Origin: a virus | IMG/VR virus record: IMGVR_UViG_3300043398_000057 | DNA length: 64,000 nucleotides | Strand: one strand, 5' to 3' | Shown: in pieces, positions 20,904 through 55,512 of the stretch | How positions within the stretch are numbered: position 1 is the first letter of the stretch | Layout: each line of letters begins with the position of its first letter | Translations under genes and position numbers: made by a program | The notes under the pieces: generated by a model | What the model saw: the letters and a program-made list of their open reading frames with translations, nothing else | Told to the model about the DNA's origin: nothing | The model's database searches: none

Positions 20904-21524
20904 TTATTTGTAGTTTTTCAGCTACATTTCAAAAAGTTTCTTTCGATGATCAAGACCGTTCAGACCACCATTGATCTTCTTTGTCAACGCTTCAATGTTT
21001 GATGCCAGTGGCGTACAGTTTCGATCTTTCCAGAACCAGATTGCCGAATCGCAAGCACCCTCAATAGTCTTCAAGAATTCAATAGTTTCGTCAACGGTCT
21101 TACCGCGATACTTTGCGTAAGCCTGAACGTTGAACTTCCCGGTCTATTGAATGAAACCTCTACCAAGGTACTTTGAACCGTCACCAGAGGCTTCGTCACC
21201 ATTACCCATACGATTTGCATACACACGGTTTGCAATCTCTCTAGGCTTTCTGGCGTACTGTTTGGCCTAGCTTGGGGTGAAATACTTCCCAAAGGTCTTC
21301 AACAGACCTTCTTCCGAATAGTTAAGATTCTCGCTCATGTACATGAACCCACCGGACTCATGACCGACTTGCGCCTAAAAAGCACACATCACAGTTTTGT
21401 CATCAAGACCATTCAGAACAAGCAAAGGGTACATCGATGCCGAAACATCAATCAACCTTTGCTTGGGGATATCTGTAAAAACCGTGATCAACAGTTCTTC
21501 AAAAAGTTTTTGGTTCATACTCAT
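20904..21524 (-). CDS. endolysin, glycoside hydrolase family 19, four in-frame TAG codons (absent from the ORF track)
   Basis: Manual translation: AF*AQVGHESGGF..ENLNYS..ANRMGNG..SGDG.KY.GRGFIQ*TG..A.WFW..TKKINGG.NGL..R; TAGs at 21375, 21267, 21144, 20922. Confidence 0.9.
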
Positions 21525-31192: not shown

Positions 31193-33664
31193 TTACCCTA
31201 GATCGGTCAAGTTGTCAGAATACTTCTTGTGGTTGTAGAAAGTCTTGACTTGTCTTCTGTTCGTACCACGGGTAAAGCTAATGTGAATCCATGGATTGTT
31301 TGCTGCAACCGAATACTCAAGCAAAAGTTGATCATAGACCGGCAATTGTTCAGACAAAGCCTTAGCAATCTCGAAATAGTCTTTCTTCGACACACCACGG
31401 AACTGAATGTCAAACGCTTGACCGTTGATGTGCTGGCTTGTCTTTGATGATGCCGCAACCGTTCTGAAACCAGATGTTACAAACATCGATGGATATGAAC
31501 GTTTAACATTCTCAAGAACATTGATGCAACCGGCCTGCAAGTTACAAATGATTTCTTCTTTGGTCAAACCATTTTGATCAACGACTTGATACTTCGACAC
31601 AGCAGCCTTGGATGAAACATCAGCCAAAGTAAAGTTTGGCGACAGTCTCAAATCATCAGGGTAAGATGTAAGACCCGCGATAGCAGCACAGTCAGCCTTA
31701 ATCGGTGCTTGGTTAGACGTTTGAACTTCGGCTGTGTCACCGGCTTCCGGCATCTTGGCGGCTTCGTCAGGGTCGATATAACCTTTCTTGATTCCATCAG
31801 AAATCATACCCGAACTGTCACCATCTTCAGGAAGTTCAAACGTCACAACCGATGCGTCAAATCTTCTATTTGGTGTCGGGTCTGATGGGTTGTTTCCACC
31901 GTTACCGGGCGAAGGTTTGGGTTGACCTGAAGATTCTGCAACACCAGAATTCATATGAACTTGGGAACCATCAAGTGCAATGTTTCCGCCAGCCTTGATC
32001 GAAACACTATCAACAGCTTCAAGTTTGATTTCTTGGGCGACAACGTTCAAGTCTTGCGCAATTCTCAAATTTGCATCACCGGCAATCTCACCGGTCAGGT
32101 TTCCGCCAACTGTAAGGTTGCAATCACCACCAATCGTTACATTGCATTGACCCTTGATGTAGATGTAACCATTTTTGTCAATGATTTCATAATCTGAGCC
32201 AACAATGCGAGTGGTTCGTGAACCAGTGTTGTCAATCTCAAAATATGAACCAGACCTATGGTAAACGTGAATACGTTCACCACCACTGGTATCATCAACT
32301 TCAATCACATGACCAGACTCTGACTCGAAAACTTTATTGAATGGATACTGCGCTGAATATGGACTAGGTTGTTCAGACCAAGTTTTACCAACAGTGTTGA
32401 TACCAACAGTTCGGTTAGAGTCTTTTCTGGCAACAACAGTTTTAGAGATGTTTTCGCCACGGGCAAGACGGTTAGTGTCCTGTTCCTTGACATATCTCGG
32501 AAACTTAGAATTGGGGTCTTTGAAACCAATCTTGCCAGAATTGATGATTTCCTTGTTTGCCTTGATGACACTGAAAGTCTTGGGGTCTTCCATGTTCACA
32601 GGTTCGGCAACACTTGTTTGTGCGCCACCCATGAAGTATTCATAAAATGTTCTCTTTCGCTGTGCAATATCGGGAGTATTGAACCCCACAGCAGATTTAG
32701 CAACATCAAAATATGTCGTAGAAGACTGCGAAATCTTACAACGATCAAAGAAATATGCACACGCAACCTTTGCCGATGCAACAGGATCAGTGTTCAAGAT
32801 TTCAGGATTTGAAACAATGTCAATACCGGAAAGTTTCGCATAACGTTCATAGTTTGCCCGACCGGTCAACTGAATGAAACCTCGACCGATGAATTTTGCT
32901 CCATCCCCGGGCATGGTGTTGCCCAAATTCTTCCCCTTTTTGGTTGTATGACCATAGAGAAATTCTGGCAAGTCTCGTTCATTGTTGGCATACTGGTTAG
33001 CCAATTGGTCATTATCACCGAAGACAGATGGGAAAACTTCTTTAAGCCTCTTTGCGGAGTATCGGAATGATTCTCTCTTCGGAATCCATGCACATTCACC
33101 ACCAATGATACCAAGCAATGAAGAAATTGAGCGTCTTGTGTTAAACCCTTGACTTTTAGCAACATCGATAATCAGTTTGATATTCTGACTTGCGATTGCC
33201 GAATTCTGTGTGCCAGCCGGTGCAACAGTGGGAATCTTCGAAATGTCGTCAAGGTCATCAATCGGGCGAACCGGTTCAGTGGTTTGAGATTGAACCGGCG
33301 CGGGGTTCGCAGAATTTGGAAACTCCTGTTCAACCGGTGCAACACTGATTGATTCGTCACCACCAGATGCTAGAAATGCATCCATTTGTTGAGGAATGCC
33401 AACAAACGTGCCCACAACAAATGGCTTTTGCTGTGCTTCATCTGCAAACCAGATGAAAACCATCGAACCTTCAACAATACCTGTAGGTGAAATGCCAACA
33501 CCAGAAACCGAAGCGTTGTTGACCCCTGAGATGATTGTTGCCCAAGGCAATGCATCCGTAGGAACTTCCTCAATTTTTTCGCTGTGCACGCCGAAAACAC
33601 GCACGCGAACACGACCCTACTTCAGAGGATCGTTTCTATCTTCAACAACGCCAACATTGAACAT
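31193..33664 (-). CDS. 5: gp5-like baseplate hub/spike with GH19 lysozyme and C-terminal peptidase M15 domain, one in-frame TAG
   Basis: GVVEDRNDPLK*GRVRVR (TAG 33617-33619), GRGFIQLTGRANY, YPFNKV.ESESGH..E.DDT, SGFR..SQH..GQAFD..WIHIS. Confidence 0.88.
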
Positions 33665-33674
33665 CAAAACCCCT

Positions 33675-34907
33675 TTACTTGCCAAGTGACTCTTTAGAAC
33701 ACTCGACAATCATATCATGTTGATTACCGATGATCTTGTGACGAATAGCGGTCACAAGATACTTGCCGGAATACTTATCGTCAATGATGCGAGACTTGTT
33801 ACCATCATCAATTGATGCATTTTTAGGCATCGTAACATTTATAACGTTACCGACTTTCAAATCTGTTCGACCGAATACTTCAATCACAATTCGGTGTGCC
33901 ATGATCGATTGCAACAGTGTATCGCGTTTCTGAATAGCACTCTTCGCATCAACAAAGAATTCGCCCAAGTATTTGCTTGACTTGGTTACAAACGAAATCT
34001 TGGCGTTGGAACCAGCAACAACATTCTTGTCAAAAAGTGGCGAACTTTCCAGATGTGGATAAGTGTTGAACTCTTTGAAATAGTCATGAGTATTGGTTGT
34101 GATTCTCTTTGTGGTTGTGTCAAACTCATGCAACTTTGTTGAAAACATACCATTTGACAAACGCTTGAGAAAATCAAAGTCTTCAATGAACTGAATGTTT
34201 TTGATCACCGACAAACGTTCAGTAGTGTTCAGCGAAGTTCCCGAAGAGTAATTTTCCGCAGACACATCCGAGTCGATATAACTGTGCTTTGCGGGTTGCT
34301 TCAAAAGAGTTTCGACGCTAGAAAATTCATAAGACTTGTTCGACTCAAAAAACAAGTATGATGGTCTGCCAACAGAATTCTTAGAAAGTGATGCGATGTG
34401 GTTGATCAGCTTGAACGGTTCCCAATATGGTGAAATGAATGTCACTGAGTTGTCTGACGGTTCAATGTAAATTTGCCTTTTCGATGCAAGACCGTATGAC
34501 GCTGTGAAAATGTCCTTGATCACATCAGAAGTTTTACCCTTGAATGAGCGACTGATTTTTCTGTTCGCATCATTGATCATTTCGGGAGAACAAAAGTGCA
34601 AAACATAGTTCTGCTTTCTTGGCTTTGGCTTTGTTCGGTTAGAGATTCTGTAAACGAAAAAATCCCTTGAGATTGTTTCCCCGTTGATACCACGAATCGA
34701 AAAACTCAAAGTCTCGTTACCCATGATGGGCAGAACGGAAATGAGGTTTTTGGTGTCTTCAATCAAAATGGAACCCGTCATACAGTTTGCAAACATGTCT
34801 TCATAGACATTGATTTCAACAAAAGAATCAGTCAGGTCAAACCTACCACCGTTGACAGTGATAAGGTCAAGTTTCTCAATATCAACTTTTCCGGGAAAAT
34901 TGTTCAT
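33675..34907 (-). CDS. baseplate hub protein (gp27-like)
   Basis: YED..TG.I.I.D..N....LPI.GNE..SG.YLVTAIRH; lies between gp53 and gp5. Confidence 0.65.
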   Translation of the reverse strand: MNNFPGKVDIEKLDLITVNGGRFDLTDSFVEINVYEDMFANCMTGSILIEDTKNLISVLPIMGNETLSFSIRGINGETISRDFFVYRISNRTKPKPRKQNYVLHFCSPEMINDANRKISRSFKGKTSDVIKDIFTASYGLASKRQIYIEPSDNSVTFISPYWEPFKLINHIASLSKNSVGRPSYLFFESNKSYEFSSVETLLKQPAKHSYIDSDVSAENYSSGTSLNTTERLSVIKNIQFIEDFDFLKRLSNGMFSTKLHEFDTTTKRITTNTHDYFKEFNTYPHLESSPLFDKNVVAGSNAKISFVTKSSKYLGEFFVDAKSAIQKRDTLLQSIMAHRIVIEVFGRTDLKVGNVINVTMPKNASIDDGNKSRIIDDKYSGKYLVTAIRHKIIGNQHDMIVECSKESLGK

Positions 34908-37144: not shown

Positions 37145-38083
37145 TTATTCTTCGGGGTAGTCGTGATTACGCAACAGTTGGCGAAGTTGAACCCAACGCC
37201 GGAAGTTACCGCTACACGGAATCGAGAACAGACCCTTAGAATCTCGCTTGATGTGGGTCACACCAGCATCAGTGAAATCCTGAATCGGGGTGCCCTGGTG
37301 TTCAGCGGGTGAGCTATGCGAACGTTCTTCAGTGCGCACCGGTTGATCAAGGTGCAGCTTCTGAGCAATGTCATCAGCCTTTTCAACAGAAGTGTCGTGC
37401 TTTCGATAAGAAGTCTGTGCGCAACATGACATGGAAATCTTCTTCGCGGTTTCCAAATCGATAACGTCACCACGTTCATCAAAGAAAACTTGCTTACCTG
37501 CAACGAATTGTTGATTCACATATGGAAGGTGCCATTGACCGGGCTCAAGCAGAACCGGTTCAGAATTGTTCAAAGCGGTTTCCATGAGGTGCGCCAGATA
37601 GTTAAATTCCGGTTGCGCGGCATCATGATTGCGAAGCCAGAAAAAGTTCTTCCAATCGGTTGCGGTCAGAACCATCTTTTGCATCATGATGGGTTCCAAG
37701 AATCGCCCGGCAAGTTGCTTGTGGAACTTCTTCTGATCAAGAATGGTGGCAGCGTCGATACAGTTGCCAACAAGCACACGCCAAATAGCTTTCACTTCTT
37801 CAAGTTCTTCACCTTCAAACTGATCATCGGCACTCATGCCGGGCTTGTTGATACCCCAAAAGTTAGGTTCAAAGTAATTGCCATTTCGAATGTTTTCAAT
37901 TTGCTTGGCAAGCGGAATTGCGCGAGAACTCGAACCATTCTTAGAAACCATCTTGTGCGTGTTCTATTCGGCCAAAATCGGGCGAGGGAACTCGACTTCG
38001 TATGTAACCAGCGGAACGCCAATACGCGAAATCGAATGAGCAATGATGTTTACAGAAGTCTTGTTAGGATGAAAGTTACGCAA
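37145..38083 (-). CDS. thyX: FAD-dependent thymidylate synthase ThyX, one in-frame TAG
   Basis: PRPILAE*NTHKMVSKNGSSSRAIP, HKQ...RFLEP, FFWLR...AQPE, H.SP.EHQ.TP; TTG start with GGAG RBS; TAG 37964-37966. Confidence 0.88.
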
Positions 38084-38325
38084 TGTAATACTCCATAAAT
38101 GTTGATGACGAACTATTGTACCACAGAAATGCAATGGGGCAACTAGTCCCTTAACCAGTTGCCCCAAGGGTCTTACCAATACTTCCTGCGAAGAAAAGCC
38201 TATGACGACGATCACGGGGTTAAAATGGCCTTGTGTGTATCAACCCATCCTACACACAATTTTTTAGCGATGTTGCGCGTTACAACAAGGGAAAACGTTG
38301 CACTAAGCGTTGCTGGCCTTTCTTG

Positions 38326-38402
38326 TGGTCTTCCCGGTAGGATTCGAACCTACGACCCTCTGCTCCCAAAGCAGATGCGCTACCAGACTGCGCTACGGAA
38401 AG
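38326..38402 (-). tRNA. tRNA-Pro(UGG)
   Basis: Cloverleaf, anticodon TGG, encoded CCA. Confidence 0.95.
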
Positions 38403-38420
38403 ACAAAACTTAAAACTTGT

Positions 38421-38505
38421 TGGTACCCCCGGTCGGAATCGAACCGACACGCCTTTCGGCGGCGCTTTTAGAGAACGCTGTGTCTACCAATTTCACCACA
38501 GGGGC
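38421..38505 (-). tRNA. amber-decoding tRNA, anticodon CUA, tRNA-Leu body
   Basis: Anticodon arm GCGTT-CT CTA AA-AGCGC, long variable arm, A73, encoded CCA; about 81% identical to tRNA-Leu(CAA) at 39617-39701. Confidence 0.93.
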
Positions 38506-38532
38506 ACACGAACTCTATTGTACCAGAAATTT

Positions 38533-38606
38533 TGGTGCCCATGCACGGTATCGAACCGCATTCTATGGCTTACAAAACCATTGCATCACCTTAATGCTTC
38601 ACGGGC
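38533..38606 (-). tRNA. tRNA-Thr(UGU)
   Basis: Cloverleaf, anticodon TGT, CCA. Confidence 0.85.
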
Positions 38607-38638
38607 GTCCTAAACTTTTCACATTATACCACATAACT

Positions 38639-38729
38639 TGGCGGGGTGTGTGAGATTCGAACTCACGGAACGCTATTAACGTTCGCCGGTTTTCAAGACC
38701 GGTGCATTAAACCACTCTGCCAACACCCC
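38639..38729 (-). tRNA. tRNA-Ser(UGA)
   Basis: Anticodon TGA, long variable arm, G73, CCA. Confidence 0.93.
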
Positions 38730-38908
38730 ATCAAATTGAATTTGCGGAACTTCCCAAAAACTTCGACGCCTTTCGGCTCCATCTAAGGGAACGTTTTAAC
38801 TCGTGTTCCATCGAGATTAGCTACATTTTTGTTACCGGAGTCTAACCCGATTTCTTCGTACAGACTGCAACCATGTCTGTACTATCTAGGGACCACCTAG
38901 AACGTCAC

Positions 38909-38983
38909 TGGCTCCGAAGGTAGGGATCGAACCTACGACCAATTGATTAACAGTCAACTGCACTACCGCTGTGCTACTTCGGA
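38909..38983 (-). tRNA. tRNA-Asn(GUU)
   Basis: Cloverleaf, anticodon GTT, G73, CCA. Confidence 0.95.
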
Positions 38984-38991
38984 ATTGTTTT

Positions 38992-39504
38992 TCACTTTTT
39001 TAAGAAGTAACCTCTTTTCGGAACCTCAATATCAAAATGTTGACACCACTTTTTCACGGTTACGTCTGACACGTTGTAAATGCTTGCTATTTTTGTCATT
39101 GGCATTTTCCAAACTATATCAGAAAGTTCTTCTTTTGTTATTTGAAACTTTACTCTATCATCACTCGCACATTTTGGTGAACAATACTTTTGTTCACTTT
39201 TGTTAGTTACCTCGAAAGAAACTTTGCACTTTGTACATGCACGATATTCTTTGATTACGTTCTTATCTTCTCTATGGTGTAACGCTGCATGTTCCGAGTT
39301 TGTCATTAACATCAAATTGCTAATATGATTGTTTTTCCTATTTCTATCAATATGATGTACACACTCGTCTGGTAGCAACAGTCTACCAATATGCTAACAC
39401 ATTACATAAACATGTTCCATGACTTTACCTGCACCGTTAGCATAAATGCTTTCCGGATTATAGCAATACATGTAACCTGTTCCAACATCTTCTCTAAAAA
39501 TCAT
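38992..39504 (-). CDS. free-standing HNH homing endonuclease, one in-frame TAG
   Basis: EHVYVMC*HIGRLL..ECVHHID.N.KNN..SNL..EH..LH, CxxC/YCS..C, C-terminal HTH; AT-rich; TAG 39394-39396. Confidence 0.8.
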
Positions 39505-39507
39505 TTT

Positions 39508-39595
39508 TGGACTCCCGTGGAGGTATCGAACCTCTCGACTTCCATCCTGCGGTTTAATGTCGTCGGCTTAGAAGACCGATGCGGGGACACGGGAG
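39508..39595 (-). ncRNA. atypical tRNA-like RNA lacking a D-arm, UCU in anticodon position
   Basis: 8-bp acceptor stem, TCGGT-CTTCTAA-GCCGA arm, long variable arm, 4-bp T stem with TTCGA, CCA. Confidence 0.65.
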
Positions 39596-39616
39596 GTCTA
39601 AAAACTTAAAACTTGT

Positions 39617-39701
39617 TGGTGCCCCGGGTCGGACTCGAACCGACACTCCTTTCGGAACCGGATTTTGAATCCGGTGCGTCTACCAATTTCACCACCGGGG
39701 C
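39617..39701 (-). tRNA. tRNA-Leu(CAA)
   Basis: Anticodon CAA, long variable arm, A73, CCA. Confidence 0.95.
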
Positions 39702-39790
39702 AACGTTTACATGATACATCTGTTTGTTGGCGTCCAACACACTCAGATTATACCATGTTTCGCCGGAATTTCACCGGCTCGTCAGAACGT

Positions 39791-42693: not shown

Positions 42694-45600
42694 TCAATTG
42701 TTTTTCTTGTACTGCCTACCGAAGACGTAGTTCGCGTATTCCTTGTAGCCTTGACCCTTCTTGATCATCAAATCTTCGCCATGAGTCATGATGTTGAACG
42801 ATGTTGAGTCATTCTCAATTCTGACAACAGGGCCGCGACTCGTTCTATACACTTCAACATCAGGGTTCTTAAACATGCCGTCTTCATATTCACGATAGTC
42901 AATAACACCATCATTTGTTGGAATCATACCATCAGTGAAAATGAATTCGATCACATGTTTAGGAGTTTGATACTTCATGGTGGACTCGTCAATTTGAACC
43001 GATTCGGTAAGCGAGTCGATGCTTGTTTGCAACCATTCACGCAGTTTCTTAGTTGACGTTGTACGAACCTTGAAAACCTTCACAATCCGAATCATCATCT
43101 GTGGCGCGTTCACCGCGTATTCGGGCGAAACCAAACGACTCGGATAACCATTTGGCAAACCAGTGTTACCACCATACCACCAAGTCTTACCAATTTCACT
43201 ATTGGAAGTTGGCTCATAAACTTCAAGTTGGAACAAATAACCAATTTCGTCATATGTTCGCGCGTAACCATGATCCGAAATGTACTGTTGTGACTTGTCG
43301 GCAGTTTGGGTGTAGTAAATGCCGTTGACTTTCGCTGTACCTTCCTGTGCCTTAACTTTTACATCATTGACCTTATAGTTAGCAAGATAATAACCCTTTT
43401 TGTAGGCGTCATCAAGGCTTGGGAAAGGATCATTTATAGCACTGATTTCAACCGCTGGCTTAGTGTCATCAAATCGTCCGAATCTGAGATTCTTACATTC
43501 CAACATTTTACCAGCAACCTTAATCGGCCCGCCACTCTTCAAAAGTTTGAAACCGTATCGAGTGATGAAAGTTGCAGCGCGAGAACCGCAACCATGGAAA
43601 ACATCAGTTCGCAATTTGTACTGAACATTGTTGTCGGCCCAAATTTTCAACATTGCGGCAATCATCTTTTCATCACTGATTTTCGATTCAAAAATGTCTT
43701 CAACAATCATCGCAAAGTCACCATGCTTACCATTTGAACGATCAGCAAGATATTTTGTGGCTTCGATCCTATCCTTCAGCGATGGGTTTGCTGGAGTAAT
43801 CATCTGAGGTTTAACGTAAGGCGTGAAATTATCAAAATCGATGGTATCGGGATCAACACCTTCCATGATCGAATCTGTGTCAACTTCATTAACCCACATC
43901 AACTTATGAATAAGACCGGCTTCCAGTGGTTCATTAGGAACAATCGGGCTACCTTCATTGTAAGACTTTGCAACACGTTCACCAGCGGCAAAGTAAATGA
44001 CCTTCTTCTTAGCTTCTGGTGGAAGCGACTTCATCGCTTCAGTAAACCCAGGTTCATCATTTCGCGCAGCAAAGAATCTGTAAGCACTTTCGATAACTTT
44101 CTCTTTCTTCAGGTTTCGAGACTTGTCATATTGACGGAACGCCAATTCGATAGTTTTTTGATCACTGATAAGACTTGCAAATTCCGTGATATCAACAGCT
44201 TGTGAACCAGTCGGGGAGAAAATCTTTTGACCGACCGACAATGAGTTCATCGCGATATTGTAGAGTTCGGGGAAAAGTTGAGCCAACTTTGTCGCAACAT
44301 CAGAGTCCATGATAGACAGTGATGGAACGTTTTTGATGTTTGGTTCGGTACCGTAATTCAATTGGGCATCTTTCCAAAGATTCACAATTCGTTCGGCATC
44401 GGCCATACTACCGGCACTATTGAGCAAAATACCTGAGAATGACTGATTGATTTGATCAGCGTAGTTTTCAAGAATGAATTCTCTAAACTTCTTTGAAATT
44501 TTGCTGGCGACACGGAACAAAGAACCGATGAAAATTTCATGAACGTTCGTTCTATAACCATCGAGAAGTTTGTCAAACAGTGCAGGATGAACATCAACGT
44601 AATGATCCAATGAGGCGTTCAACAAATCGAACGAATCGTGCACTTCGGCATGGCGAATCATGGAAGTACAGGTTTCAGTTTCCAAGATTTTATGCGCAAC
44701 GTTTGTGTGAATGTTGACAACCGAATCATGGAAGTACAGCGCGAAGTTGCCATAGTTTTTGTTGTAGAACGCCGAAATACACCAGTCAACGAATTTTTCG
44801 TTAGTTTTACGGTATTCAATGATTTGAGCGATTGCTTGGAAATGAGTATCAGAAAATTTGTCGGCAGGGTGAATATCAGCAATCAGTCTAACAAGATTGG
44901 CAAGGTTTGGCGGAATGCATGAGGTGTCATAGTACCTCGAATAACTATCAAACTGTTGCAAAAATGTTTTATACTTTGATGCGTCATCAAGATTGAACGA
45001 ATTTGCATCCTTTTCATATTTTGCAAAAATCTCGTTCAGTGAACCACTTTTGTATTTTTCCAGTTTGAAAGAAATTGGAACAAGTTTGTAGTGACCCAAG
45101 TATTCCGTGCTATCAAAATTCTTCAGTGCTTCCATGAGTGCATCATATTCAGCATCATCAGAAACCACATACTGATCATATGTGTCCATGGCAAGTGCCA
45201 AAATAACATCGGGGGTTTTCTCGAATGTAAATTTGTCATCGCCTATCACACCAACGGGGAAGAACTGCTTACAAGCTCTGAACGCGCACACGCTACCACC
45301 ACTAAGATGGGGTTTGAATTCCAACTCGCCGCTGCGCATAGAATAGTAGCTGTAATTCGAAAAATCGTCCTTACCCGTGTTCGTCAGCGTAGAACCCGGG
45401 AAAATCTCAGAGAAGTTGACCAACATCCAACGTTGGGCGGAATTGATTGTACCAAAGTCAACACTTGATGGAGCGTTGAAAATATACTGAGCCAGCATCA
45501 ACCAAAAGAATTCATTACCGGTTGCCTTTTTGTAGAAACCAGAATTCACCAAACCCTTCATGAAAGAATCAAACCGTGCGCCGGAATCGGATTCATCCAC

Positions 45601-47031
45601 AACAAATCTGACGGTGTTTTTCGGATATTGTTCAAAAGCATGGAATGCATAATCATATGCACTCTTCGAACTGTAATAGTATGACGAACGATAGAAATAC
45701 TTGTTGACCCCCTTTGAGTTTCGTTCTGTTGAAATGTTGTACTCATATTTTGTTGCCTTGAAATATGCATCAAAAAACTTCTTGGCATTATCCTTATCGG
45801 CGTTTGCGATGGCATCATTGATTTTGTAAGAGTATTTGTACATGTCATCATTAGCGTTGATGTATTCCAAAAACTCTGTAACATCAACACGCTTGGCAAC
45901 CTTATCAAATTCACCATTGATCAAGTTGACAAACATGTTCTTCATTTGCAATGGCGTAAACGATGATGGCGCGGCCAAAGTCTTACTACCCTTTGGTGCA
46001 CGACCGCGTTTTGCCGGTGCTGTAGCAACCGGTGCCGGTGAGGGAGTTGCAACCGGTGCCACAACCGGTGCCACAACAGGTGCAACAGGTGCCACAACCG
46101 GTGCAGCAACAGGCGCGGGAGTAGGTGCAGGCGTTGCAACGCGAGACACAAACGGTTGCGAGAATTGCGAAACGGGCGTAACCAATGGTTGAACAATTGG
46201 ACGAACCACGGGCTGAACAACGGGTGCTGTAGGCACAACAGTGGCAACAGGTTGAACAATTGGACGGGGCGGGGTCACAACCGGTGCTGGAACTGGTGTG
46301 GGTGCCACAACAGGTGCCGGTGCTGGAACTGGTGTGGGTGCCACAACAGGTGCCGGTGCTGGCGTGGGCGCAGGGGTTGCAACCGGCGCAGGCGCGGGCG
46401 GAGTCACACCAGCTTTAGGTGTACCCTTGGGACCAAGTTCACCAACAATCTTAGGGTCATACGAATCGAAACCGTTTGAGCCAACATAGTGAGTTGCAAG
46501 CCGCTTAAATTCAGCAGCAACCTTTTGACGAGCCTTAGAGTAGCCTTGAATGTCTTGCCAAACAAGAACACCAACTTGTTGAATGCTGTATGTGCCGGTG
46601 CGCCACTTGGTGAACTGATTCTTCAGAATCGTCGATGGTTTGAAATCCGGATCACGCAACATTTCCTTTGCAAGACCGCGCAAAATAGTTTCATCAATTT
46701 GACTTGACGACAAGTTGCCTTGCTTGATCTTGGCGAACAGAAGCGTGAACTTGTCGGCCAGAACCCGACTCATAACACCACCTTCAACAGCCAGCTTCAC
46801 CGACAGTGAAATGTCATTGTTTGCGTCACCAATGTTGTCAAACCGAATCGACTTGTCATTGATGAAATAGTTCTTAACAGCGTGACCACCTTGAGTATCA
46901 CCAATGGCATACAGACCAAGAATGCCAAAAATGTTGATAATCAGTGCATCAGACTATTGTTGCTTGTCGGCAACCAATGCATCCTTTTCTTGGGCATTGG
47001 TGTAAAAGGTGTTTTCATACAAACGTTTCAT
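42694..47031 (-). CDS. large Alt-like ADP-ribosyltransferase (about 1445 aa), one in-frame TAG
   Basis: PARP-like FHG..I.RYGF..GKML..GIY...DKS.QY..PEY near the C-terminus; ATG 47031 with GAGG RBS; TAG 46954-46956. Confidence 0.7.
46010..46410 (-). repeat. Pro/Ala/Val/Thr low-complexity coding repeat
   Basis: PAPAPVVAPTPV-type repeats inside the Alt-like gene. Confidence 0.85.
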
Positions 47032-47567: not shown

Positions 47568-49286
47568 TTACTGACAAGCCTCACAAATTTTTGGTTCGCT
47601 TGATTCTTGTGCAGCGTCACCATCTCGTGTTGAGTAGATGTAGTACAAACCCTTACAGTATGGATCGTTAATCGCTTGGCGGTGCAGCTTAACAATATCC
47701 CGTGGATTTGCATTACTAGGGATGTACAGGTTCAAACTCTGACCCTGATCTTCATAGCGTTGACGCGCCGATGCCAACCGAAGATGTGCGCCCATATCCA
47801 TCTCAAACGCAGTCTTGAAAACCTTCTTTTCATGGTCAGACAGCCAATCAACATCTTGAACCGAACCACGGTTTGCACCAATCTTCTTAAGAATCTCTGG
47901 TTTGTGCTTACCACGTTCTTTCATGATCGCCAACAGATATGGATTAACGCGATGAACCAATCCAGCGGGAGTAGTCTTGGTGAAAACCATAGCGGTATCG
48001 GGGTTGATACCTTCAGACACACCACCCATGATTTCGGCGGTTGACTTTGTTGGCGGATTCATCAAACGTGTCGCGTTACGAATACCAAGACCCTTACAGT
48101 GCTTAGGTTCACCCAAAATGCTTGCCAGCCACTTCGTTGCTTGCATAGATTCTTCATCAAAATGCTTTGCAATCTCAAGGTTCAGAATGTGGGCTTCAAG
48201 CGATTCAAACGGAATCATCTTACTCATGAACAGCGAATGAAGACCCATCTTGCCAAGACCCAATGCACGGAAATCTTCGGCAAACTTGACAGACTTTTCA
48301 AAACCGGGCACGCCACGGGCAAGTTCAATGAATTCTTGGTTAATGCAATCCAAGAAAACGGTCATCCAGAAAACAGCCTTGTTCGTCTTGATCTTGTCCC
48401 AATGGATCAGATTGATAGACGACAGAACGCAAACAAAGTTGTATTCTTCGGGGTCCGATGGCAGACACACTTCGATACAGAGGTTACTTGCGCGGATTGG
48501 ATAACCCGAACGCTTAATAGCTTCTGGTGCAAGTGCATTAGCCTTGTCAATAAAGAAAATGTAACCCTTACCGTAGGTCATGCGCAGTTTCATGATTTTC
48601 TTGAAACGACGATTCGCTTCCTTGTCACGGGAATTCAGCTTGTCGATGAACGTTTGTTTGAAAATCCAGCCCATGTTGAAATCATCGGGGGTTTCGTTCA
48701 GGAATGTCCAAACTTCATCAAAGTCGCCATGTTCAACATCAAGATAAAACGCGCATGAACCTCGACGGGCGTTACCTTGCGAAACATATGTCATGTCATG
48801 AATAATGCCAGCAATGATTGGCATCACACCTTCCGCCTTACCACCAATTGAAATGGGGGTGCCACGACAACGGATTCCACTCAGGTCAACGGAAGTGCCG
48901 AAACCCTTCTTCGTGTGCATTGCCAAAAGATGCTTGGTACTGTAGATGCCATCAATGCTATCGGGTGGCACAGCACCCATACAAGAAATCGGATACCCAT
49001 TTGTTGTACCGGTATTACTCAGAACAGGGGTGGAACCACTGAAGATGCCTTCCCAAAAGAAATTGAAAAAGTTTTCGTATGCCTCTTCGCGATATTGTTC
49101 GGGGAGATGCCTTGCAGCAGTCTTTGAAATTCGCTTGTACTGATCCTTAACGTTTGTAACGCCATTCAGATACTTCTTTTTGAACTATTGCCAACCGGCA
49201 GTGTTCCACCATTCTGGCATTGTTGCATCAGCTTGCATCTGCTTTCGTTCTTCTGAAAGCAGTTCATATTCAGTTTTGTCACTCAT
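47568..49286 (-). CDS. nrdA: ribonucleotide reductase class Ia alpha subunit, one in-frame TAG
   Basis: STPVLSN, PISC, QG..RRG, SNLCIE, C.LSS.N, PT.ST, QGQSLN, terminal CEACQ; TAG 49185-49187. Confidence 0.93.
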
Positions 49287-49292
49287 TATTCA

Positions 49293-50309
49293 TTACTCCA
49301 ATTCTTCATCGGCTTCAAGATAATCAAAATCGTCTTCAATCCACTTACGGGTATATTGCGAACCGGTAGCGTTGAAAAAGTCAATCACGTTGTAAGAGTT
49401 AATGTCATCATAGAACCATTCCCGGATAGGGTTGTAGGTAACGACAAACAAACTCTTCAGACCCAAATTGTGCAGACACTCATTCAAGCGAGACTTAACA
49501 AAGTTCTTCAGTTGAGTTGCGGTGATGCCCTTGATCGGACCCTTATCGAAGATTCTATCAGCAATGTAGGCTTCGTGTTCATAGATCGTTTCGGCAACAG
49601 CGTACAACGCCCGTTCGATATCTTCGCGCTTACCGTAACGTTGCTCAAGAATGCCATCTTCGATACAATCATTCATCAAATGACGGTAGCCGGTTGCACC
49701 AGCCAAACTATGAATGTTTTCGTCAACCAAACTGAAGTTCACGCCCGCAACAACGTTCTTCGCATCCGACTTACCGTTAGCTTGAAAGTGCTTGAGATAA
49801 GCAAAACTCGAATAGAGAATGGCACCCTCAACCATCGAGAACGCGCCAAGCGAAACCTAATCATTTTCGTGGTTGACAATCGAATCAATGAAATCCATTC
49901 TGGCCTTGAGAACAGGATCATTTGCATATTCCTCATAAAATTCATCAGTATCAAGACCGAAAATCTCATTGATCTTCTGATAGAAAGGCTTATGAATCGC
50001 CAACTCGAACGCTGCAAAGGTTGTACCCATGCGGGTAAACTCTGGACCCTTCATGATCTTGATGAAACGATTTGACCAATACTCTTCACCGGCAAACATT
50101 TCGTACTTGGTGAACAGCTTCAGGGTGTACAAAATGCCATGACGGGAAGATTCCGGCATTTCCACCATGATGTTTTGCTTATCCTTGTGCAACTTCACTT
50201 CTTCGGGCTACCAAGTGCCCGCAAGTTGCTTGTTTGTAAAATGTTGACTGTACTGAGGAAACGCCTCAACAATTTTACCTCTTCGATCTTCGTATGCCCG
50301 TACTTTCAT
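49293..50309 (-). CDS. nrdB: ribonucleotide reductase class Ia beta subunit, two in-frame TAG
   Basis: W*PEEV, FT.YE, E.AIH..FY, D*VSLGAFSMVEG..LYSSF, DENIH, DFF; TAGs 50208 and 49857. Confidence 0.93.
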
Positions 50310-51331
50310 TTCAATCCTTTACGCCATTTTCCATATTGAACCATAGCCTCCAAACCACTCACTTTATTTTCAAGAATATACTTTCTGAGGCGGGTTTTAC
50401 TTACTCCCAACTCAACCATTTTAGCAATATCTTTCGACACTTTGCTTGGAAATAAACAGATACTCCAACCTTGTCTAATACCTGTCTCGATATTCTTACA
50501 AACCTCATGATTGTATGGTTCGTTATCGTAAACCAAAATGGTTTTCGACTTGTCCAAATTCATCTGAGTTGCGATTGAGTGCAGTGCAGCATTCCCAGCG
50601 GCAAACGTGTTGTCAAGGCACAACGCATCCAACTGACCCTCAACCACAATTGTAACATCCGAGGTGTCAACCGTGTTGAACTTGAACGGAAAGTTTTTGA
50701 CTCTATCAGCATCCAAAATCTTGATGTACTTTGGATCAACACCAGTCAGTGTTCGAGCGATGATGCCAATAGGGGTATTCTTGTCATCAAAGTATGGAAT
50801 GACAAGTCTCGGATGGTCAGGAAGATCACTATCAAGATTCCACTTAACAGGGTCAACCTTAGAAGCATACTCAACAAAATTTTCCGCATAGTAGAACGGC
50901 CAGCCAGTCAACTTTCTCTCTTTGATGTACTGGTTTACCATGTGGTCTTTGGGAAGTGTTTCAACTTTGACCAATCCAACAAGGTAGTCAACCTCTTTGG
51001 GTTTAGGTGCGGCAAAGTCCGTAACAATGGTAGTCTTCTTTTTGAACGCGCCATTGTTTTGGGCAAAATTGTCCATGTTGTATTCACGGAACATGGTTTG
51101 ATCATATTCGCGCAAAAACATCTTGAACGGTTGACAATAATTGCAGTTGAAGCAACCCGCAAAAACAGTATCCCCGCGCTCGAAGAACCCAAAACGTTTC
51201 TTGTACTTGTTCTTCTTCGAGTCGCCGCAAAAGGGGCATCTAGCAACAGCCTTTATCGGCTTCCTGCTTAGATATTTGAACTGCTCAAGGGTCTGACCAA
51301 CCCTTTCAACATATTCGTGTTCACGGGCCAT
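50306..51331 (-). CDS. 61: DNA primase gp61
   Basis: RCPFCGDS..K.R..CFNC, RLVIP, EG..D, YDNEP. Confidence 0.92.
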   Translation of the reverse strand: MAREHEYVERVGQTLEQFKYLSRKPIKAVARCPFCGDSKKNKYKKRFGFFERGDTVFAGCFNCNYCQPFKMFLREYDQTMFREYNMDNFAQNNGAFKKKTTIVTDFAAPKPKEVDYLVGLVKVETLPKDHMVNQYIKERKLTGWPFYYAENFVEYASKVDPVKWNLDSDLPDHPRLVIPYFDDKNTPIGIIARTLTGVDPKYIKILDADRVKNFPFKFNTVDTSDVTIVVEGQLDALCLDNTFAAGNAALHSIATQMNLDKSKTILVYDNEPYNHEVCKNIETGIRQGWSICLFPSKVSKDIAKMVELGVSKTRLRKYILENKVSGLEAMVQYGKWRKGLK

Positions 51332-51726
51332 TATTGAAGACCCGAAATGTCAACCTTTGGTGGCGTTGGTTCATCATCGTCTTCGGTAATCATCATTTCT
51401 TGAAGACTATCCTCGACGGAGGAATCATGAATTTTCTTGAGTCCACTGTAAATGTTTTTGTAGAACTGTGTGTAATACAAACTCGCAACTTCCTGCATCG
51501 TCACATCAAACAGTGGAATTCGAAGGGTAGGGGTTTCGCTTGCGGCGGCAAACCCAAACGGAACAGGCGTAATCGTCACCATAGGCACACCATTTTCACC
51601 AACAACAATCTTTTGATTGAGAACGCAAGGTTTCAAAAGAGTTACAACACTGTCATCAGTTTCATCAAACTCACCGATGTAAGTTTGACCTTGTGTTGTG
51701 TGAACGATCATGATAACATTTTCCAT
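51331..51726 (-). CDS. Sm-like hypothetical protein (T4 61.1-like position)
   Basis: G..YIGE..L.KP pattern; synteny with gp61. Confidence 0.5.
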   Translation of the reverse strand: MENVIMIVHTTQGQTYIGEFDETDDSVVTLLKPCVLNQKIVVGENGVPMVTITPVPFGFAAASETPTLRIPLFDVTMQEVASLYYTQFYKNIYSGLKKIHDSSVEDSLQEMMITEDDDEPTPPKVDISGLQ

Positions 51727-51751
51727 ATTGGCCTTTACAAGTTGTTTGAAC

Positions 51752-53269
51752 TCATTGTAGCACAGGAAGGTTGATCAGTTTCGTGGTGAAATCATGTTGT
51801 TCTTCGGCGTATAACGTGACACGTTTACCAAAGTGATCCATACCAAAATTGACGACAACGGATTTCCCAATTTTCACTGACATATCATCAGCAATGTCAT
51901 ACAGGTTTGTCATGTTCTTACCGACCTTGAGTCTCAAAAGACGACCAATCGATTGAATGATGGTGTTACCAGACTTCATCGGATGGGCAAAGATCAAATT
52001 CTGCAAATTGGGGATGGACAAACCGGTTGAAAGGGTTTGGTAGTTGCTCACAATGATGCAGTCTTCGTTGTTGGCAATCTTGCGAATACTTTCCTTTTCT
52101 TCACTTGTGTTATCGCCAGTGACAAGGTAAACAGGCTTCTTAGAAATTTTACACAGTCGCTCATAAATGTAATCAGACTGCTTTTCTTTGAATCGAGTTA
52201 AAATCAAAGTGCAACCACTCAGCGCATTTGCCATACCACAAATCATGTTATTGCGGTTTCGGTTTGTAACAATGTAGTCAATCTCGGTTTCGTACTCGAA
52301 CTTTTTCTTCTTACCACTGACATTGACCAAACCCTTAACAATTTCAGGGTCATGCTTGACAACAATGCATTTGATAGTGATGGCGGTTGCCTTACCACTG
52401 TCAATCAGTTCTCGCGTTGTGGTTGTCTTGTGGATGTAACCTGTGATTGCCCGAATCACCATTTCGTTACACTTGGTTTCCTTGAGTGAACCGGTGAAAC
52501 CAAGACGCCATGCAGCATTGTGACAATTGTTAGCGATTGATTGAATAGACTTGCTGGACGCTTTGTGTGCTTCATCCAACATCTATGCACCATATTGCGA
52601 AAAATAGTCACTGTCTTCTTTACTGATCGATTGATAGGTAGAAACAATGATTCGCTTGGTGGTGTTCTTGTCTTGACCGGCAGTAATCTTGTGAAGGTTT
52701 GCAGAAACATCAAACCCATTGTTTCGGCTGTATTCAATGAAGTCAGTTTCCATCTGTGTCACAAGCGCAACAGTTGGCACGACCAAAAGAATTTTTGCAT
52801 CAGTGACATTAAGTAGATGCCGAATGATGGTATAGATGATCAGTGACTTGCCCGATGATGTTGGAGAATGGAACAAGACTTTCTGACTGTTGATACCGTC
52901 AACAATCGCGTCAATCTGGTAGTCATAAACCTCGATGGGAACACCCTCACGCATGATTTTGAAGTCTTTACACAACTGCACAACTTCTTTTCGTGTGGTG
53001 ACTGCAAGGTTTTCACCAAAACCATCGAATGTGTATTGAACACCAAGTTGTTGCAAGGCTTCTTCGATGTTGGTCAACAGACCAGAACCAAAGTTTCCGT
53101 ATGCATCAACACATGAGATGGTACCATCCCAAACCTTAGCCTTGAATCGTGGATGATATTTGTAACCATCAGCGAAGAAACAAAACTTTTCCTTCAACTT
53201 TGAAATGACCAAAGAATCTGCGCCCTTGACTCGGTAAACAGCCTCTGAGCGTTTTTGAATAACTGCCAT
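51752..53269 (-). CDS. uvsW: UvsW helicase, one in-frame TAG
   Basis: PTSSGKS, STYQS, YGA*MLDEAH, GFTGS, QSIGRLLR; TAG 52583-52585 joins two ORF-track fragments in frame. Confidence 0.93.
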
Positions 53270-54956: not shown

Positions 54957-55512
54957 ATTACAACTCCAAAATCGTTTACATGACTCTAGTGTAACACAAA
55001 AACAACAAATCTATCAGTCTAACATCAAAAATTGTTGGTTTTAGTCAACACCCCATCAAACTGTATGATTTGCGACAATCTAGTGTTGTTTTTATGCAAC
55101 TATGTTAGGGAAAACCCTTAGAACTTAGGGTAAATCAGTAGTGAGAAGTGTCAAAAAGTGTGGTACAATAAAAGTGATTGTTTACCAGCACTAAACAATA
55201 GTACCATATAACAAGCGATGCCTTGCATCGCTGTCTTGCCAGAAAGTACAACGTACTTTCGCAAGACCAAACGTTCTATAGAACGTTGTTAAGAAAATTG
55301 TTATAACATAGTTTTGAACGAATTTCCAAACGGTTCAAAACTATGTAAAGGTTGAGAACGTTACAGATGTGGTTATCGACCGAAAGTGTGTCTTGTGAAA
55401 GACCATGTTTGATGGCGATACTGTAAAGGTTTCAAACCTACTTCTGCTCATTCAGTCGCATACTGCGTATGCTTTGTGAATGAGAGGCTTCGCCTGTATA
55501 TCTTGAGTGATA

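Follow-up and report, generated by a model that had tools for sequence, protein, structure and literature searches.

The 64,000-nucleotide stretch of viral DNA analysed here (the window; IMG/VR record IMGVR_UViG_3300043398_000057) carries on its minus strand, at 38421-38505, a transfer RNA (tRNA) gene whose anticodon, CUA, pairs with the amber codon UAG. We consider it highly probable that this gene encodes a functional phage leucine-family tRNA that decodes TAG as leucine, and very probably it is through this tRNA that its phage lineage reads a TAG = Leu code. That TAG means leucine in this phage is strongly supported by comparison of its genes with those of relatives, with a paralogue in the same genome and with collected homologues, and the tRNA gene itself is, judging from its features, a real and conserved leucine-type amber reader. 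The window represents 64 kb of a genome of about 145 kb (its proteins are found on a 144,862-bp contig), and within it this is the only tRNA with a CUA anticodon.

Codon exchanges between relatives point consistently to leucine. A 6165-bp Logan contig from SRR30451274 (L015) is collinear with 47568-53269 of the window, a minus-strand region of early genes that includes nrdA, nrdB and uvsW, at 81% nucleotide identity. Its collinear genes hold six in-frame TAGs and those of the window hold four (nrdA codon 34, nrdB codons 34 and 151, uvsW codon 229), with only nrdA codon 34 shared. At every one of the eight unshared sites, TAG in one phage is matched by TTG in the other. A further exchange is seen in the thymidylate synthase gene thyX (37145-38215, minus strand), whose TAG at codon 84 of the open reading frame (ORF) is TTG in a 20.7-kb Logan contig from DRR804116 (L010), a T4-like relative with the standard code and a ThyX that is 70% identical. 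Thus all nine differences between TAG and a sense codon in these two related contigs are TTG, and because TAG has seven sense neighbours one step away, such uniformity is not expected by chance. Across the window, about 20 of roughly 90 genes contain credible TAGs in frame, about 27 in all, against 430 TTG codons, so that TAG (about 2% of Leu codons and about 0.14% of all codons) is an infrequent alternative to the Leu codon used most often.

The same assignment emerges from paralogous and homologous proteins. The GH19 endolysin gene (20904-21524, minus strand), across whose TAGs PHROG and PDB matches run, contains TAGs at codons 50, 86, 127 and 201, and the first three all align with Leu in the GH19 domain of the same phage's gp5. 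Leu is the commonest residue at five of nine TAG columns, each with 93-120 homologues. The three endolysin columns carry Leu in 85/120, 29/120 (again the commonest residue) and 83/120 sequences; in the two conserved ones, the first and the last, the remainder is I, V, M or T, and neither Gln nor Tyr occurs among the 120. Leu fills 55 of 119 sequences at the ThyX column, with no Gln or Tyr, and 56 of 93 at NrdB codon 151. The UvsW column lies in a hydrophobic strand just before the DEAH motif and is occupied by I or V, with Leu only in the 86%-identical relative. The first-pass annotation had proposed that TAG means leucine here, and the nine exchanges with TTG, the three paralogue sites and the predominance of Leu at conserved columns all uphold that proposal.

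TAG is also absent where a stop is required. The 94 gene models, which are strand-consistent and cover 90% of the window, end in TGA (53) or TAA (41), and none needs TAG. Just one TAG is found 15 or fewer codons from the end of a gene, and homologues run past it. Alignments to Pfam, PHROG and PDB entries cross the TAGs in gp5, NrdA, NrdB, UvsW, ThyX and an HNH endonuclease. We conclude from these genes that read-through of TAG is, in all appearance, essential for the phage. The base that follows TAG is purine-rich, and not clearly unlike the first positions of ordinary codons. A crude comparison of ORF length and coverage did not discriminate between codes, since reading through TGA lengthens ORFs on the antisense strand.

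Recoding of the ‘code 15’ type is marked by a tRNA(CUA) that the phage encodes itself, by TAGs in frame within conserved genes and by the lack of TAG stops, and all three are found here, the last of them for the 64-kb window. As for a code like NCBI table 16, the comparisons support TAG = Leu and the stops TAA and TGA, and table-11 translations give strong family matches. The cost of overlooking a leucine code is already practical. Because gene callers offer code 15, public gene calls translate the six in-frame TAGs of L015 as Gln, and the five unshared ones among these are TTG in the window. The window's own ThyX is stored in the database truncated, as a 268-amino-acid fragment that starts after the TAG.

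The tRNA gene bears the structural hallmarks of the leucine family. ARAGORN calls an 85-nucleotide tRNA with anticodon CTA, and the gene scores 48.4 bits against Rfam RF00005 (gathering score 29, E 1.3e-08). The cloverleaf comprises a 7-bp acceptor stem, a 5-bp anticodon stem, a 5-bp T stem, a D arm with a 3-bp stem and an 11-nucleotide loop (AAAUUGGUAGA) containing GG, the anticodon loop CUCUAAA, and a long variable arm with a 3-bp stem and a GAAA closing loop. At the 3' end, A73 is followed by a CCA present in the gene, as in the sister gene tRNA-Leu(CAA), which reads TTG and lies at 39617-39701 on the same strand (ARAGORN; Rfam 57.1 bits). ARAGORN, Rfam and the cloverleaf therefore agree with the type II tRNA of 85 nucleotides, with CUA and A73, that had been described at first sight. 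The A36-A37-A38 run in the anticodon loop is the usual substrate of i6A37 modification, which aids the reading of codons that start with U.

All 23 stem pairs (46 of 46 stem cells) form in both the CUA and the CAA gene, and the pairing signal vanishes when the cloverleaf is shifted by 1-3 columns. The structure of the CUA tRNA is, by this measure, evidently under purifying selection. Of its 30 best phage matches, 19 are annotated at the matching stretch, every one of them as tRNA-Leu, and ARAGORN verified five of its phage matches as tRNA-Leu with anticodon UAA or CAA. The variable arm, the D stem and loop, A73 and the nearest relatives are all those of a bacterial type II tRNA-Leu, and we accordingly classify the gene, from its sequence features, as a leucine-family tRNA with an amber anticodon. 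Two other identities were considered and rejected. The tRNA-Ser of the window has G73 and a 6-bp variable stem, and a serine identity for the CUA gene is ruled out by A73 and the short variable stem. ARAGORN's label of tRNA-Pyl follows from the anticodon alone; members of the tRNA-Pyl family have a very short variable loop, a small D loop and an elongated anticodon stem, and the D loop of 11 nucleotides with GG, the 5-bp anticodon stem and the long variable arm rule this identity out.

How such a tRNA would serve the phage can be outlined. Early in infection, host RNA polymerase would transcribe it as part of the tRNA cluster, probably using the gene's own extended -10 element, and the tRNA would mature with its encoded CCA. 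Host leucyl-tRNA synthetase (LeuRS) would then load it with leucine, since this enzyme is blind to the anticodon and the CUA tRNA keeps A73 and the D loop of the sister CAA gene. That LeuRS largely ignores the anticodon was part of the first-pass argument and is borne out by the literature, in which LeuRS recognition is anticodon-independent (PMC7969014; PMC7373986); the E. coli suppressor supP, in which the anticodon of leuX is changed from CAA to CUA, inserts Leu and ranks among the most efficient suppressors (PMC7969014). The charged tRNA would compete with host release factor 1 (RF1) and place leucine at the roughly 27 TAGs of about 20 genes, both early (nrdA, nrdB, thyX, uvsW) and late (gp5, gp48, endolysin), with TAG swapping with TTG between relatives as a rare synonym. 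The gene itself would descend from a phage leucine tRNA gene with CAA or UAA as the parent anticodon.

The origin of the CUA gene is less simple than first proposed. It had been read as a duplicate of tRNA-Leu(CAA) changed by a single step from CAA to CUA, on the grounds that the genes differ at about 16 of 85 positions, half of them in the anticodon arm, and are followed by the same 16-nucleotide trailer. The counts are exact: 16 of 85 positions differ (69 identical), and of these the anticodon arm accounts for eight and positions 44/45 for another two. The trailer, ACAAGTTTTAAGTTTT, is identical on the minus strand at 38405-38420, where it forms the spacer to tRNA-Pro, and at 39601-39616, after tRNA-Leu(CAA); no third exact copy exists in the window, and copies with three mismatches occur at chance level. 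An identical and unique trailer argues for shared ancestry of the two genes or for gene conversion between them. The D arm (16/17), variable arm (10/11) and T arm (16/17) are near-identical as well, so the idea of common ancestry stands, and it is likely that the CUA tRNA shares ancestry with the CAA gene within this genome.

A simple copy, on the other hand, does not account for the rest of the molecule. In five pairs both partners have changed: 6:67, 27:43, 30:40 and 31:39, together with the outer pair of the variable arm. These make up three of the five anticodon-stem pairs, one acceptor pair and one variable-arm pair; position 32, too, is C in the CUA gene and U in the CAA gene. An origin of the supP type, in which the body is that of the resident CAA gene save for position 35, fails on 15 further differences and these five double-sided pairs. 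Moreover, the CAA gene is nearer to the tRNA-Leu(CAA) of Sinorhizobium phage Phosso (72/85 positions; 89% over 82 nucleotides aligned by BLAST) than to the CUA gene (69/85). Derivation of the CUA gene from its CAA neighbour by one change is, on present comparisons, not established.

The main alternative is that the CUA gene is the lineage's Leu(UAA)-type gene, as found in the T4-like Vibrio phage EniLVp02 (Straboviridae), whose anticodon passed from UAA through CAA to CUA and whose 3' half and trailer were homogenised with the CAA gene by conversion, its function as proposed here being unchanged. We think the chance of this falls only a little short of even. In the anticodon stem with its flanking positions 26/44/45, the CUA gene agrees with the CAA gene at 5 of 13 positions and with the Leu(UAA) genes of phage KZY1 and EniLVp02 at 10 of 13; in the acceptor stem it agrees with the CAA gene at 11 of 14 and with EniLVp02 at 13 of 14. 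In a search of 50,697 phage records the two best matches of the CUA gene were Leu(UAA) genes and the best matches of the CAA gene were Leu(CAA) genes, and ARAGORN finds no Leu(UAA) gene in the window. The differences between the two sister genes are also lopsided, with 12 in positions 1-46 and 4 in positions 47-101, trailer included. The trailer, identical and unique in the window, and the closeness of the variable and T arms to those of the CAA gene speak against this history. So does a Leu(CAA) gene (L145) with a GCG-type anticodon stem, which makes the stem undiagnostic, and the bodies of tRNAs are short and convergent and the comparison covered 11 tRNA genes. Two histories fit: either the CAA gene was duplicated with its trailer and its anticodon arm remodelled, or a Leu(UAA)-type gene passed through CAA to CUA and had its 3' half homogenised. 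Under either, the anticodon of the immediate precursor was most plausibly CAA, since the alternative intermediate, UUA, would read TAA, the stop of 41 of the 94 gene models.

The placement of TAGs within genes bears on how completely they are read. In most TAG-bearing genes the first TAG falls within about the first 50 codons (for example at codons 10, 15, 16, 22, 24, 26, 27, 34, 34, 34 and 37), as would be expected either if incomplete suppression is tolerated or if the TAGs form a deliberate gate. In its most far-reaching form, our proposal is that a T4-like freshwater lineage independently evolved a complete TAG-to-Leu code and imposes it on a standard-code host through one early tRNA and the host's LeuRS, with TAG and TTG near-neutral alternatives. 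Through their mostly 5'-proximal TAGs, about one fifth of the genes, early as well as late, could then be translated only in the presence of the phage's own tRNA, a self-authentication gate that would guard against expression at the wrong time or from foreign sources. We offer this only tentatively, and as a whole it is rather doubtful.

A narrower possibility, which we regard as unlikely, is that the CUA tRNA is a partial suppressor serving as a timing or dosage gate, with TAG still often terminating and some 20 genes dependent on the level of the tRNA. The rarity of TAG relative to TTG and its position early in most genes would suit such a gate, as would a host that presumably keeps RF1. Engineered supP circuits work in this way (PMC7969014), and Borges et al. 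propose that recoding regulates late genes (10.1101/2021.08.26.457843). However, TAGs occur in early (nrdA, nrdB, thyX and uvsW) and in late genes, leaving no clean temporal split, and the TAGs of L015, at codons 20, 34, 60, 103, 194 and 417, are less concentrated towards the 5' end (417 in uvsW; 103 and 194 in nrdB). The turnover between TAG and TTG looks near-neutral, with eight of nine sites unshared at 81% nucleotide identity, and a codon that often terminates sits poorly with the lack of TAG stops. Partial suppression would in any case be compatible with the decoding of TAG as leucine by this tRNA, and not exclusive of it.

Several observations weigh against leucine, or against this tRNA as the whole explanation. 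NrdB codon 34 and endolysin codon 201 fall in variable columns where Leu is not the commonest residue, and at the gp5 column, where T4 gp5 has Leu, another solved spike has Gln (PDB alignment). The top acceptor pair is G1-U72 in the CUA gene and G1-C72 in its sister. The classical su+3 mutants of tRNA-Tyr illustrate how weakening of the 1:72 pair, combined with U35, can lead to mischarging by glutaminyl-tRNA synthetase (GlnRS), and by analogy G1-U72 with U35 is the kind of change that can let GlnRS act on an amber suppressor. U35 and A73 on a type II body also resemble tRNA-Tyr determinants. Finally, a release-factor inhibitor or a second suppressor may lie outside the 64-kb window.

On these grounds the CUA tRNA might be charged mainly with Gln (through U35 and the weak G1-U72) or with Tyr (through U35, A73 and the type II body), the Leu signal then reflecting substitution tolerance, and the published recoded phages do read TAG as Gln. 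We nonetheless find this very improbable. None of the nine exchanges is with CAG or TAY, though these are as close to TAG as TTG is; neither Gln nor Tyr occurs at the conserved endolysin columns or at the ThyX column; and the UvsW TAG sits in a strand of I, V and L. Decoding as glutamine fails on the exchanges and on the endolysin columns, and with no Gln at conserved TAG columns and no TAG/CAG exchange, charging by GlnRS is probably not the main reaction. Still less credible is a decaying or silent CUA gene whose TAGs are read by a host suppressor or by a phage factor in the part of the roughly 145-kb genome beyond the window, given the perfect cloverleaf with its five compensatory pairs, the gene's own promoter-like element, its retention in independent river samples and the lack of a Leu-type CUA tRNA of the scanned pattern in one genome each of 185,579 prokaryote species.

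The CUA gene belongs to a minus-strand cluster with tRNA-Pro(UGG) at 38326-38402, tRNA-Thr(UGU) at 38533-38606, tRNA-Ser(UGA) at 38639-38729, tRNA-Asn(GUU) at 38909-38983 and the tRNA-Leu(CAA) described above. ARAGORN and Rfam recover all six, and all exceed the Rfam gathering score of 29 (the Pro, Thr, Ser and Asn genes at 47.9-71 bits). The extended -10 element that had been noticed just upstream of the CUA gene is there: TGGTACAAT, at 38517-38525 on the minus strand, lies 12 nucleotides upstream of the tRNA 5' end and is a putative sigma-70-type promoter, assigned by consensus match only. TGGTAYAAT is present eight times in the window, where 0.87 copies would be expected. Of these, six fall between 38115 and 40584 on the minus strand, the coding strand there, and three of the six stand directly upstream of the CUA, Thr and Leu(CAA) tRNA genes, the last being TGGTATAAT at 39747-39755 on the minus strand; the remaining copies are at 45446-45454 and 55161-55169. 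From this clustering, individual tRNAs may well have early-type promoters of their own.

Between the two Leu-type genes lies an HNH endonuclease ORF (38992-39504, minus strand) with a TAG at codon 37, across which the Pfam HNH_3 match runs (residues 31-73, 8.4e-10). Between this ORF and the Leu(CAA) trailer, at 39511-39596 on the minus strand, is a tRNA-like element with an 8-bp acceptor-like stem, a T-arm-like hairpin (GAGGUUCGAUACCUC) and a UCCA end, and with no proper D arm. It is not called by ARAGORN, its Rfam match to tRNA-Sec is weak (23.3 bits, E 0.18), and its folding z-score is -2.6. The HNH ORF starts at 39504, and its ribosome-binding site is apparently GGGAG, the 3' strand of the stem of this element.

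The CUA tRNA recurs in nature. Contigs of two 2018 river metagenomes, from two studies, cover it with three differences in 127-140 nucleotides. In one river contig the tRNA-Pro slot (38319-38398) is replaced by 93 other letters and the CUA tRNA is kept. Another, a 151-nucleotide contig of low depth, joins the region upstream of Leu(CAA) (39703) to the CUA tRNA (38504), omitting 1198 nucleotides. Since this contig leads from upstream of the CAA gene directly into the CUA tRNA, the locus does rearrange, and the cluster varies between strains.

Wider scans for the gene used a pattern for Leu-type CUA tRNAs that covered one form of D loop plus anticodon loop only, so that absence is weak evidence. 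IMG/VR gave one chance match, not a tRNA, and one genome each of 185,579 prokaryote species gave 31 chance matches and no tRNA(CUA). Among 89 matches in JGI metagenomes, four are tRNA(CUA), none of them related (at most 67% identity) and at least one of them mitochondrial. The clearest of these, on the 8971-bp contig Ga0194038_1001887, is a Leu-type tRNA(CUA) in a mitochondrial sequence (nad1, cox2, cox3) with many in-frame TAGs, a known organellar TAG = Leu code. The 1513-bp metagenome contig JAAUYK010057417.1, which is high in GC and looks bacterial, carries at 64-151 an 88-nucleotide Leu-type tRNA with CUA, A73 and CCA, next to ORFs that, by reading of their translations, resemble TsaC/YrdC and PurE; this may be a chromosomal leucine amber suppressor. 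NrdA relatives in IMG/VR are distant and without a CUA tRNA, a UvsW search of IMG/VR gave no match, and E. coli genomes gave no BLAST match to the CUA tRNA at E 0.01.

The phage that carries this gene has a G+C content of 43%, and near-complete copies of the window were found in one freshwater sample only (run index), perhaps the one from which it came. PHROG, Pfam and PDB searches identify several T4-type genes, those for UvsW, NrdA, NrdB, ThyX, a gp5-like baseplate hub, a gp48-like tube cap, the GH19 endolysin and the HNH endonuclease inside the tRNA cluster. Among the 50,697 phage records the best UvsW match, to Synechococcus phage BUCT-ZZ01, has 39% identity, followed by cyanophages, a pelagiphage and Caulobacter phage Cr30; with UvsW matching at 39% at best, the source can be placed as a distant T4-like myovirus. 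The best NrdA protein identity in GenBank phages is 52%, and a DNA search of GenBank phages for close relatives matched tRNA-Pro only. Contigs with identical neighbouring proteins are all at most 1.5 kb, and none extends to the tRNA cluster. In the standard-code relative L010, 29 called genes contain no in-frame TAG and no TAG stop (17 TGA, 12 TAA), which, in so small a sample, fits a lineage poor in TAG stops before recoding.

Two further TAG-bearing genes deserve description. The gp5-like hub (31193-33709, minus strand) has its TAG within the conserved motif DPLK-x-GRVRVRV, in a stretch that the PDB alignment crosses. Residues of about 175-325 of this hub match GH19 (chitinase-like) endolysin families and structures, a region paralogous to the free endolysin, and the PHROG and PDB searches reported no match of the T4-lysozyme type there. 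A 1445-amino-acid ORF (42694-47031, minus strand) has a TAG at codon 26 that is kept in two contigs from other samples, 97-98% identical.

If a leucine-reading code is confirmed, it would break a published generalisation. Borges et al. found only TAG to Gln and TGA to Trp in phages with a code unlike their host's, and argued that GlnRS and TrpRS are the synthetases open to hijacking (10.1101/2021.08.26.457843); Cook et al. likewise mention only these two codes. Our phrase searches of the literature for TAG or UAG read as leucine returned ciliates and mitochondria, and no phage or bacterium. An anticodon-blind synthetase would let any leucine tRNA turn suppressor with no new enzyme. The TAG/TTG pairs between relatives would represent codon reassignment at low density, suited to the study of stop-codon capture, and as T4-like phages are the best-understood phage family, genetic and biochemical approaches should carry over once there is a host to work with. 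Suppressors that occur naturally in phages also bear on how well recoded production strains resist viruses, and they are of interest as components in the engineering of genetic codes.

The nearest known parallels are the recoded phages, namely crAss-like, Lak and the Garnet, Topaz, Agate and Jade groups with ‘code 15’ (TAG to Gln) or code 4 (TGA to Trp) (Borges et al., 10.1101/2021.08.26.457843; Peters et al., PMC9523058), which share with this phage a tRNA(CUA) of their own, in-frame TAGs in essential genes, no TAG stop and a presumed standard-code host. Here, in contrast, TAG is read as Leu and not as Gln, the phage is a freshwater T4-like myovirus of 43% G+C and not a low-GC gut phage, and its TAGs lie in early replication and nucleotide-metabolism genes as well as in late genes, at the low density noted above.

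Among bacterial suppressors, E. coli supP (Su6+, tRNA-Leu5 from leuX, CAA to CUA) has the same type II bacterial tRNA-Leu body and CUA anticodon (PMC7969014). Yet supP is a one-base laboratory mutant of a host gene, and the gene described here occurs naturally in a phage, differs by G1-U72 and by an anticodon stem that has been remodelled, and serves the phage's essential genes. Laboratory suppressor forms of the tRNA-Leu of phage T4 itself were reportedly obtained by Foss, Kao and McClain in 1979; those are said to be selected mutants, whereas here wild-type genes depend on a natural gene. Outside bacteria and their phages, UAG is read as Leu in the nuclear code of phyllopharyngean ciliates, whose CUA tRNA derives from tRNA-Leu(CAA/UAA) with its Leu identity elements kept (PMC11687900), and by a CUA tRNA in the mitochondrial TAG = Leu codes (NCBI tables 16 and 22). 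In those systems all of the translation machinery evolved together and UAG accounts for 6.5-10% of Leu codons, whereas here a virus would impose the leucine reading on a host whose release factor presumably recognises UAG.

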